DNA of 63,917 nucleotides, the filler included, from Rhabdomonas costata (taxonomy: Eukaryota), in NCBI GenBank assembly GCA_019059605.1. It is 43 parts of 43 records of this genome, joined end to end, with 100 filler letters (N's around TTAATTAATTAA, not from the genome) between each part and the next. Parts side by side here need not be neighbours in the genome. Positions count along the whole stretch, not along the records: positions 1 to 1,388 come from JAHMHO010017414.1; 42 more parts are not named here. One strand, written 5' to 3'. How positions within the stretch are numbered: position 1 is the first letter of the stretch; the number at the start of each line of letters is the position of its first letter. Below are positions 1-48,323 of this stretch, piece after piece. Below the pieces are notes generated by a model. It saw only the letters and a list, made by a program, of their open reading frames with translations. It was not told where the DNA came from and did no database searches. Position numbers and translations under genes: made by a program.

Positions 1-1
1 G

Positions 2-484
2 TTGGGTTTTAATGTATTTGAACTTGAACATATACACAAATTAGATGTCTATTTAAAGAACCCAAAAATAAATATTCTACAAAAACATTTGTCTTATAAT
101 GATATCATTAATTTATATTATACTCATGATATTTCTATTCAAGTTTCATGTCAAGAAGGTCTCGGATTAGGATTTTATGAATCAATAAGTACAGGGACAC
201 CTGTATTAAGTTTAAATACTCCGCCACATAATGAAATTATAAAAGAAAATGTGAATGGATGGTTAATTTCATGTGATTATGAAGATATGATAGATAATAC
301 AAACGGAATAATTAAAGCTGCTGTATTTAAATCACATACATTATATGATAAGATGGTTGAAATTGTAAATAATTATAATTATGACAAAATATATACAACA
401 TTAAAAAAAAATCTTGAAGAAATTCATATTGATAAATTTAGAAAACGTTTAATTAATAGTTTAGATTTACATATATTTACATAA
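2..484 (+). CDS. Glycosyltransferase family 4 (GT-B) C-terminal domain, 5'-truncated, probably viral
   Basis: E-x7-E motif EGLGLGFYE followed by GTPVL..PPHNEII..NGWL. Very AT-rich codons, no introns, ORF open to the contig edge. Confidence 0.85.
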   Translation: MGFNVFELEHIHKLDVYLKNPKINILQKHLSYNDIINLYYTHDISIQVSCQEGLGLGFYESISTGTPVLSLNTPPHNEIIKENVNGWLISCDYEDMIDNTNGIIKAAVFKSHTLYDKMVEIVNNYNYDKIYTTLKKNLEEIHIDKFRKRLINSLDLHIFT

Positions 485-511
485 AATAATTTATAATTTA
501 TAAATTATTTT
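483..511. terminator. Perfect 13-bp A/T hairpin between convergent genes (Mimiviridae-type polyadenylation hairpin candidate)
   Basis: AAAATAATTTATA-ATT-TATAAATTATTTT; the arms are exact reverse complements and fill nearly all of the 30-nt gap between the two stop codons. Confidence 0.65.
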
Positions 512-514
512 TAA

Positions 515-1387
515 TTACATAAAACATGTATCATTATCACAATAAATATTTAATTCTTTATTATTTATCTTTCTTCTCTTTGCTTTTTGTTCTATTATGA
601 GATCATTCTTTTTAATCGAGTTAATCATTTTAATATATTGATCTTCTGTTATTTTTTCATATGGCATTTGAGGATAACAGGAAGTAAATTTTGGAAGAAA
701 ACTTATTGCTTTTAATTTTGTTTGATATTGTTTAATTAATTCACTAAAATAATTTATATTTATATCTTTGTCAATAGATATTGTTACAGATACCTGATTA
801 TCTGCCCAATATTTTTGCATTAATGCTGTTATTTCTAATTGTTCTTCTAATGATGGATCCGTTTTTACATTTTTTATTTCTACTGGAAATTCAATCACTA
901 AATTATCTTTCATTACTTCATCATCTTCAACATGATATCCTAATTCAATATATTTTTTTACAAGTTCATTTGTTTTACTAATTCTTACACGTCGTATATA
1001 ATGATTCGCAATTGGACTATGAATCCCAGATGTTGCACCTGTTAATATTGATATTGTTCCTGATGGTTTAATCGATGTTTTCTTTATACTTTCATTTATA
1101 TTCAATATCGATGATATTTTTTTATCATAATCATCTAAATGTTTATATCCAGCTTGTAACCATGAAATTAATGTTTGTTTATCATGTTTCTCTAAAAATT
1201 GTGCTATACCTGATAATGAAACACCAATACGTCTATTTTTTTCTATTATTTTATCTGTTTCTTCATATCCTGTTTTTACTAATGTAACTATTTTTCCATA
1301 TAAAAATGCATATCGTAATGTCTTTAAAAATTCCTCAAAATTTTCAATTCGATTTAAAAATACTTCTACTAGATTGCAAACTTCATT
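515..1387 (-). CDS. nrdJ: Adenosylcobalamin-dependent ribonucleotide reductase, class II monomeric (RTPR/NrdJm), 5'-truncated
   Basis: Frame is open beyond the listed ORF to the contig end: NEVCNLVEV..LRYAFLYGKIVTL..KNRRIGVSLSGIAQF..TSIKPSGTISIL..SGIH..WADNQVSVT..YPQMPYEKI, ending in the C-x4-C pair YCDNDTCFM. Confidence 0.92.
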   Translation of the reverse strand, partial: NEVCNLVEVFLNRIENFEEFLKTLRYAFLYGKIVTLVKTGYEETDKIIEKNRRIGVSLSGIAQFLEKHDKQTLISWLQAGYKHLDDYDKKISSILNINESIKKTSIKPSGTISILTGATSGIHSPIANHYIRRVRISKTNELVKKYIELGYHVEDDEVMKDNLVIEFPVEIKNVKTDPSLEEQLEITALMQKYWADNQVSVTISIDKDININYFSELIKQYQTKLKAISFLPKFTSCYPQMPYEKITEDQYIKMINSIKKNDLIIEQKAKRRKINNKELNIYCDNDTCFM

Positions 1388-1388
1388 A

Positions 1389-47526: not shown

Positions 47527-47631
47527 NNNNNNNNNNNNNNNNNNNNNNNNNNNNNNNNNNNNNNNNNNNNTTAATTAATTAANNNNNNNNNNNNNNNNNN
47601 NNNNNNNNNNNNNNNNNNNNNNNNNNGTTGT

Positions 47632-47682
<51 letters not shown>

Positions 47683-48088
47683 TATGCGCGCGCGCGCGCG
47701 AATTCCTCTTTAGTTTTTTATTCAAGCAGACACAACTGCCCAGACACAACTTGTCAACAGAAATCGTCCTGCCTTCCAGCAGCATGGGGGGGAGGGGAGG
47801 ACTGGAGGACCTGGCCCTGCCGGAACTGGAGCTAAACTGGCCGGTTTGGGCCGATACTTGGTGGTGCAATGGTGGTCTTTCTGAGTTGAGTTCACTAGCA
47901 GTTTCTCAGCCTGCAGCGGCATCTGTCCTGTGTATATGGCTGCAGGGTACATACCTCCTATGTGCACATTCGCCTCGGACTGGGCCTGGGATGGCCTTCC
48001 TGCTAGTCTGCACTCTCGCAACCAAAATGTACAGGTATGTGTTGTTCTGTTTGCCTTATTCTTGTTTGTTTTCTTTTGTGGAAATCAG

Positions 48089-48323
48089 GTACGCTGTCAT
48101 CCTGATGGACTGCTCCCTGCCCACGATGTCCGGGATGGAGGCCACTCGTCGGATCCGCCAGATGCCCCACCACCGGCGCACCCCGATCATCGCGGTGACG
48201 GCGAACCAGTCGGCGGAGAGCCGGCTGAGCTGCGCGGAGGCCGGCATGAGCGAGTTCATGCCGAAGCCCTTGACGGCGCAAAACTGGCAGGCCATCGCGG
48301 CGCTGTATGCAGGGCACCAGTAG
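48089..48323 (+). CDS. Response-regulator receiver domain, terminal exon (likely a hybrid histidine kinase)
   Basis: YAVILMDCSLPTMSGMEATRRIR..TPIIAVTAN..CAEAGMSEFMPKP: phospho-acceptor Asp, Thr and KP all present; stop at 48321-48323. Confidence 0.92.

Follow-up and report, generated by a model that had tools for sequence, protein, structure and literature searches.

What kind of genome carries the ribonucleotide reductase (RNR) gene that ends on the first contig of this stretch of the Rhabdomonas costata assembly GCA_019059605.1, and what would such an enzyme mean for its carrier? The window, as we call the whole stretch of 63,917 bases, is made up of 43 contigs of 1,386-1,409 bp each, which are chained via N runs and a TTAATTAATTAA linker. 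These contigs are unlinked, and therefore neighbouring positions in the window are without biological meaning; their near-equal lengths apparently reflect an assembly sorted by length. Contig 1 (window 1-1388) has 1,388 bp and 23.1% GC (guanine plus cytosine) and is the sole AT-rich one, the other 42 contigs lying at 45.5-59% GC. On its minus strand it encodes the C-terminal part of a B12-dependent, monomeric class II RNR, placed tail to tail with a glycosyltransferase (GT) gene. Judging from the relatives of these two genes, we consider contig 1 to be most probably of giant-virus origin. This reading draws on the 1,388 bases and on relatives from other DNA, and no link ties contig 1 to the other 42 contigs.

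Translation of the minus strand between positions 515 and 1387 gave 290 residues followed by a stop codon, with 0 internal stops, in a frame that runs off the contig end. The fragment corresponds to the C-terminal 45% of a ribonucleoside triphosphate reductase (RTPR, also NrdJm), and the 5' part of the gene, about 360 codons, lies beyond the contig end. As the contig ends at approximately residue 416 in the numbering of the Lactobacillus leichmannii enzyme, it includes neither the radical Cys loop nor the second active-site Cys nor the monomer-specific insertion domain. Against the RTPR profile TIGR02505, the fragment scored 158 bits (expectation value, E, of 2.8e-46), with residues 2-289 aligned on profile positions 386-722 of 724. 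The curated equivalog cut-off of this profile, 340.05 bits, is a whole-protein score, and the fragment stays under it because only these profile positions are covered. Competing families scored far lower, namely 37.6 bits for the dimeric NrdJ profile TIGR02504 and 23.8 bits for the class I NrdA/E profile TIGR02506. In the case of solved structures, the L. leichmannii RTPR (PDB 1L1L) was the sole chain found at E<=0.001, matching over chain residues 417-708 with an E of 3.4e-31. The Pfam RNR barrel PF02867 matched as well (E 1.6e-08). With these profile and structure matches, the assignment to an RTPR-type monomeric class II RNR, which a previous sequence-only reading of this DNA had proposed, is supported by sequence comparison.

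The motifs expected of such an enzyme are present as well. They include EVCNLVE (residues 2-8), YAFLYGKIVTL, NRRIGVSLSG, KPSGT, WADNQVSVT and CDNDTC, and every motif that the sequence-only reading had listed as intact was recovered in the translation. In the HMMER alignment to 1l1l_A, query residue 2 falls on chain residue 417, which places Cys4 at Cys419. We take Cys419 of the L. leichmannii RTPR to be one of the active-site redox pair. Cys4 is kept in 192 of the 194 other family rows, whereas the K, P and G of KPSGT are invariant across all of them (194/194). Both cysteines of the C-x4-C tail are found in 191 of these 194 rows, and in 8/8 full-length members of the clade described below. This mobile tail presumably re-reduces the RTPR active site via thioredoxin.

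To place the fragment within the family, 1.84 billion representatives were searched exhaustively, which returned 3,528 reductase relatives at E<=0.001. The closest of these were 56% identical over the full fragment (P0005) and 61% identical over a 197-amino-acid fragment. A phylogeny calculated with IQ-TREE (LG+C20 PMSF, 59 chosen rows) put the window fragment inside a nine-row clade with a support of 100/99. This clade consists of the fragment and eight full-length mates, P0003-P0008, P0011 and P0013, and identities of the fragment to P0003-P0008 are 50-56%. The same clade was obtained with FastTree on 208 rows (10 rows including one duplicate, support 99). Its members can be recognized by the signature E.CNLVEVFLN.I, against E.CCL.ETFP..H in most other rows. 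In a quick tree the clade was grouped with ciliate sequences at a value of 95 in the Shimodaira-Hasegawa-like approximate likelihood ratio test (SH-aLRT), but this grouping dissolved in the careful IQ-TREE analysis. The acquisition from a protist that the sequence-only reading had suggested is thus not upheld, and the deeper position of the clade is unsettled.

The clade signature was also looked for in larger collections. Among 185,579 prokaryote species genomes it gave six matches, all of them out of frame and stop-filled, and none a reductase. Its back-translation matched 0 IMG/VR contigs, and a single-protein scan of IMG/VR found no clade member. The best 80 IMG/VR loci of an alignment scan were 38.7-45.7% identical to the fragment. 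Regarding proteins from named sources, the closest cellular ones reached 44-45% (Anaeramoeba, Blepharisma, Halteria and Sediminitomix), and the best of 1,226 matching phage RTPR records reached 39.7%.

Since half of the gene lies off the contig, the full-length clade mates are informative for the remainder of the enzyme. All eight carry LN[SN]C, N-x-C-x-E, the Cys of E.CNL.E and the terminal C-x4-C. In the 1L1L alignment, N-x-C-x-E corresponds to N406, C408 and E410, the redox Cys to C419 and its partner Cys to C119. The insertion domain of class II enzymes, PF21995, which takes the place of the dimer interface, is present in all of P0003-P0008 according to a precomputed Pfam list. When scored against TIGR02505, three of the eight were above the cut-off (345-353 bits) and five reached 290-339 bits. 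With clade mates at the cut-off and all catalytic motifs kept, the clade appears to be a divergent but catalytically complete RTPR lineage. By analogy with these mates, we infer that the window gene is complete and its N-terminal half catalytically competent.

Important insight on the carrier was gained from the surroundings of one clade mate. P0008, which is 51% identical to the fragment, is encoded on L081, a 24-kb metagenome contig of ~31% GC, where its neighbours are a D5-type helicase-primase, the translation factor eIF-1A, a DEAD/DSHCT (Ski2-like) helicase and a leucine-rich repeat protein. The sole organism-named relative of the D5 protein among 120 listed was that of Bodo saltans virus (57% identity, E 1e-187). 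In IMG/VR, three of its four relatives lie in named giant-virus bins, the best of them (53%) in a bin referred to here as G001. The eIF-1A homologue and the helicase, a Ski2/Mtr4-like protein of 796 amino acids, occupy positions 4232-7213 of L081.

The second gene of contig 1 leads to the same group of viruses. The GT fragment, on the plus strand, matched the Pfam families PF00534 (E 4.1e-11) and PF13692 (E 6.7e-08), and 67 relatives were found at E<=0.001, mostly two-domain proteins of ~750 amino acids. The organism names among these 67 relatives were, in 3/3 cases, those of Klosneuvirinae: Yasminevirus (49% identity), Dasosvirus (53%) and Fadolivirus (46%). In detail, the window fragment is 46-53% identical to the C-termini of these ~750-amino-acid GTs and has the invariant motifs EGLGLGFYE and PPHNEI in common with them, contig 1 holding only the last fifth of the protein. 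In IMG/VR the GT family was found at 32 loci, 23 of which carry giant-virus-bin names. The kinship of the GT and the D5 gene beside P0008 thus point, independently for the two genes of the contig, to Klosneuvirinae-like Mimiviridae. This supports the Mimiviridae-like origin claimed by the sequence-only reading.

Two further observations concern the DNA that follows GT genes in giant-virus loci. In three giant-virus bins, AAAATTGA stands directly after the GT stop codon (L093 2405-2420, L094 12212-12227 and L095 12242-12257); we take it to be the early-promoter octamer of Mimiviridae, presumably belonging to the gene that follows. At two other giant-virus loci, short tandem repeats of ~16-13 nt lie right after the GT stop (L102 12214-12277 and L114 2827-2890).

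On contig 1, the convergent genes leave a spacer of 30 bp between their stop codons, and a hairpin fills it, in which positions 483-496 are paired with 498-511 at 100% complementarity over 14 nt per arm. The tail-to-tail arrangement with a GT4 gene across a perfect hairpin, described in the sequence-only reading, is therefore found as such. This is the longest palindrome of the contig, and when the contig was shuffled 500 times with its dinucleotides preserved, no shuffle reached a perfect arm of 14 nt. Folding of the hairpin as RNA gave z values of -3.6 for the plus strand and -2.2 for the minus strand. In Mimivirus, a 'hairpin rule' is said to place hairpins at transcript 3' ends, and the palindrome of the window fits this rule. 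Contig 1 thus presents a pattern of AT-rich, intron-less DNA with a short spacer and a 3' hairpin, and by this analogy the two transcripts probably both end at the hairpin. The features of the contig are compiled below.

Table 1. Annotated features of contig 1, in window coordinates.
Feature	Position	Strand	Basis or role
GT4-family glycosyltransferase, 3' part, 160 codons + stop	2..484	+	PF00534, PF13692
AT-only perfect palindrome, 14-nt arms, 1 nt between	483..511		Probable shared 3'-end/termination hairpin
RTPR-type reductase gene, 3' part, 290 codons + stop at 515-517	515..1387	-	TIGR02505, 1L1L
C-terminal CDNDTC (Cys283, Cys288), C-x4-C tail	524..541	-	Translation, family alignment
KPSGT, residues 107-111, conserved barrel motif of RNR catalytic subunits	1055..1069	-	Family alignment
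Cys4 codon in EVCNLVE, aligned with Cys419 of L. leichmannii RTPR	1376..1378	-	HMMER alignment

Rfam gave no match anywhere in the window. In the other 42 contigs, long open frames are few, and a Pfam scan of 11 of them matched one (1/11). This is a 231-residue frame at 47628-48323 on the plus strand, on a contig of ~54% GC, which carries a response-regulator receiver domain (PF00072, E 2.8e-14).

Altogether, contig 1 is probably a genome fragment of a Mimiviridae-like, more precisely Klosneuvirinae-like, giant virus with GT4 and RTPR genes, which was present as free virus in the sample or as DNA integrated into the sequenced eukaryote. An alternative that stays close to this reading is giant-virus DNA that became endogenous in the nucleus of the ~50% GC eukaryote behind the rest of the assembly, where it may be silent or decaying. 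Contig 1 comes from one assembly with 42 contigs of 45.5-59% GC that have few long open frames (1 of 11 with a Pfam match), giant-virus insertions are documented in protist genomes (PMC8204020), and nothing in the 1,388 bp separates free from integrated DNA. However, neither frame is interrupted within the 450 codons present, the contig contains no junction with higher-GC DNA, and its 23% GC is undiluted, so that we regard a nuclear element as unlikely. Further away lies an AT-rich cellular source, which could be a protist that encodes RTPR itself, as ciliates and Anaeramoeba do, or else a bacterium rich in AT or a phage of such a bacterium, with the giant-virus likeness of the GT explained by gene exchange. 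Such a source is conceivable as RTPR occurs in eukaryotes, including the Anaeramoeba, Blepharisma and Halteria proteins at 44-45% identity, as well as in bacteria and in the 1,226 phage records, and bacteria too have convergent genes with a terminator-like hairpin between them. It was also favoured by the quick tree with its ciliate grouping, which the careful tree did not keep. But no named cellular protein exceeds 45% and no phage protein 39.7%, the clade signature occurs in no reductase of the prokaryote reference genomes, the GT relatives bearing organism names are giant viruses only, and the only clade mate with a visible context adjoins a D5 helicase-primase of the type found in nucleocytoplasmic large DNA viruses (NCLDVs). 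A cellular source thus appears very improbable.

Several results weigh against the giant-virus reading and its hairpin part. Contig 1 contains only two gene ends, the 3' parts of the convergent genes, and no NCLDV marker, and the DNA context of the clade was seen for one of its eight other members, P0008. The radical-generating half of the window gene lies off the contig, so that an intact gene is assumed. A reductase was found within 10 kb of the GT in 0 of the 32 giant-virus GT loci, and none of the five searchable GT-bearing records (three giant-virus bins and two single contigs) had an RTPR over the cut-off, one weak match reaching 18.5 bits. Therefore, the pair of GT and reductase is not conserved. 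In the case of the hairpin, a crude count of perfect hairpins after GT orthologues gave no clear enrichment (mean arm 6.1, against 5.2 in controls), arms of >=9 nt followed 3 of 32 GT orthologues against 3.75% in controls, and on L081 no hairpin follows the reductase gene. Because of this small enrichment after GT orthologues and the lack of a hairpin after the L081 reductase, the role of the hairpin stays at the level of a probable one.

RTPR is not restricted to the window clade among giant viruses. G001 is a giant-virus metagenome bin (its IMG/VR name begins GVMAG-M; loci L058, L131 and L135) of 753 kb and 94% completeness with three NCLDV capsid matches. It has its own RTPR at locus L058, which scores 342.5 bits, over the TIGR02505 cut-off, is 43% identical to the window fragment, and has a eukaryotic-type topoisomerase IB and a RING protein as neighbours. 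A match to the class I small subunit (PF00268) was lacking in G001, as was a second RNR barrel. In contrast, the giant-virus bins with the nearest GTs, G006, G007 and G009, all have the PF00268 small subunit (R2) and no RTPR. G001 may thus be a bin in which class II has taken the place of class Ia. Regarding cobalamin metabolism, the PduO adenosyltransferase PF01923 was found in none of four giant-virus bins, one of them G001, and in the examined half of L081 there was none even at E<=1; the downstream neighbour of the reductase on contig 1 is the GT.

The G001 enzyme lies outside the window clade and groups with P0029 in the IQ-TREE phylogeny (support 99/96). In an approximately unbiased (AU) test, joining the two giant-virus RTPR clades was not rejected (p 0.08). 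The trees therefore suggest two acquisitions of RTPR by giant viruses as the likely course, with a single origin still compatible. Relatives of the G001 RTPR in IMG/VR are 54-59% identical to it, and the neighbours of three of them were scanned (L214, L173 and L160). L214 and L173 show one-directional gene rows with gp32, RecA, DnaB, a 5'-3' exonuclease, a family B polymerase and Mom-family genes, so these contigs are phage-type; in L160 the scan gave a peptidase M23 match only. The sequence-only reading had allowed for NrdJm being already common in Imitervirales genomes. Of this, the presence of RTPR in at least one public giant-virus bin, G001, was found. An RTPR in a public giant-virus bin lowers the novelty of the contig 1 finding.

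Comparison with described systems places the enzyme more closely. The L. leichmannii RTPR and the fragment share the Cys419 motif E-x-C-N-L-x-E-V-F, NRRIG-S-SG, KPSGT and W-x-DN-x-S-x-T, and both have C-x4-C two to three residues from the C-terminus; N406, C408 and E410 of the bacterial enzyme are common to the full-length clade mates. The two are only distantly alike in sequence, the clade proteins having 645-712 residues against 739 and being without about 28 residues that match 1L1L chain 483-510. The carrier would differ as well, a eukaryotic virus in the case of the window clade and a bacterium in the case of L. leichmannii. The G001 RTPR is likewise that of a Mimiviridae-like bin, but from a different clade. 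Phage RTPRs, such as those of Actinomycetia phage DSL-LC01, Mycobacterium phage Gaia and Maribacter phage Panino, are virus-encoded members of the same family; they are at most 39.7% identical to the fragment, form separate clades and have bacterial hosts. The eukaryotic RTPRs of Anaeramoeba flamelloides, Blepharisma stoltei and Halteria grandinella belong to the same family and length class at 44-45% identity and fall outside the nine-row clade in the IQ-TREE phylogeny. Euglena gracilis and Dictyostelium are further eukaryotes with RTPR. The existence of such eukaryotic enzymes implies that protists can supply adenosylcobalamin to an RTPR. Overall, what is unusual is the carrier; the enzyme itself belongs to a known family, of which it is an ordinary member.

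The class Ia RNR of described NCLDVs has the same role, viral dNTP (deoxyribonucleoside triphosphate) supply, and its catalytic subunit shares the PF02867 barrel fold, but unlike RTPR it needs oxygen and the di-iron R2 subunit. According to passages of PMC10598087, which surveys NCLDV pangenomes, all NCLDV families carry class Ia RNR, which is strictly aerobic and used there as a dating marker, and class II RNR occurs in prokaryotes and phages. The statement of the sequence-only reading that described NCLDVs use class Ia agrees with these passages. Among the titles and abstract openings that our literature searches listed, none concerned a class II RNR in a giant virus, although gene tables of giant-virus metagenome-assembled genomes may list such genes uncommented.

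How would such an enzyme work in a virus? By analogy with the L. leichmannii enzyme family, it would use adenosylcobalamin to generate a thiyl radical. Working as a single chain, it would then convert ribonucleoside triphosphates into dNTPs and need neither oxygen nor a di-iron/tyrosyl small subunit nor a partner protein. Thioredoxin would supply the electrons, which the C-terminal C-x4-C tail would relay to the cysteine pair of the active site. Inside the infected protist, viral dNTP synthesis would thus run on a cofactor made by prokaryotes only, and because of this the host must take up B12, for example from bacterial prey. From what is known of the family, we infer a dependence on B12 in vivo and the use of the host cobalamin pool. 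A B12-using giant virus would make most sense in bacterivorous or low-oxygen protists. A more far-reaching interpretation, in which a Klosneuvirinae-like lineage has long kept its own clade of monomeric B12 reductases and relies on it instead of class Ia, is put forward only tentatively and seems to us rather doubtful.

Which class of RNR a replicon uses tells of the conditions, in terms of oxygen, iron and cofactors, in which its DNA is made. The window adds a distinct virus-linked RTPR clade to the known ones, the value of which is tempered by a truncated gene on a 1.4-kb contig. A giant-virus clade with an oxygen-independent B12 reductase would contradict the statement, in the cited passages of PMC10598087, that class Ia is found in all families. 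If class Ia was indeed replaced, genome replication in these viruses would be independent of oxygen and iron and dependent on a vitamin made by prokaryotes, the viruses would be tied to bacterivorous or low-oxygen protist hosts, and class Ia would no longer hold as a universal 'aerobic marker' of NCLDVs. In this way, a B12 reductase in giant viruses would link viral replication to the bacterial vitamin supply and hints at hosts that live on bacteria or in low oxygen.

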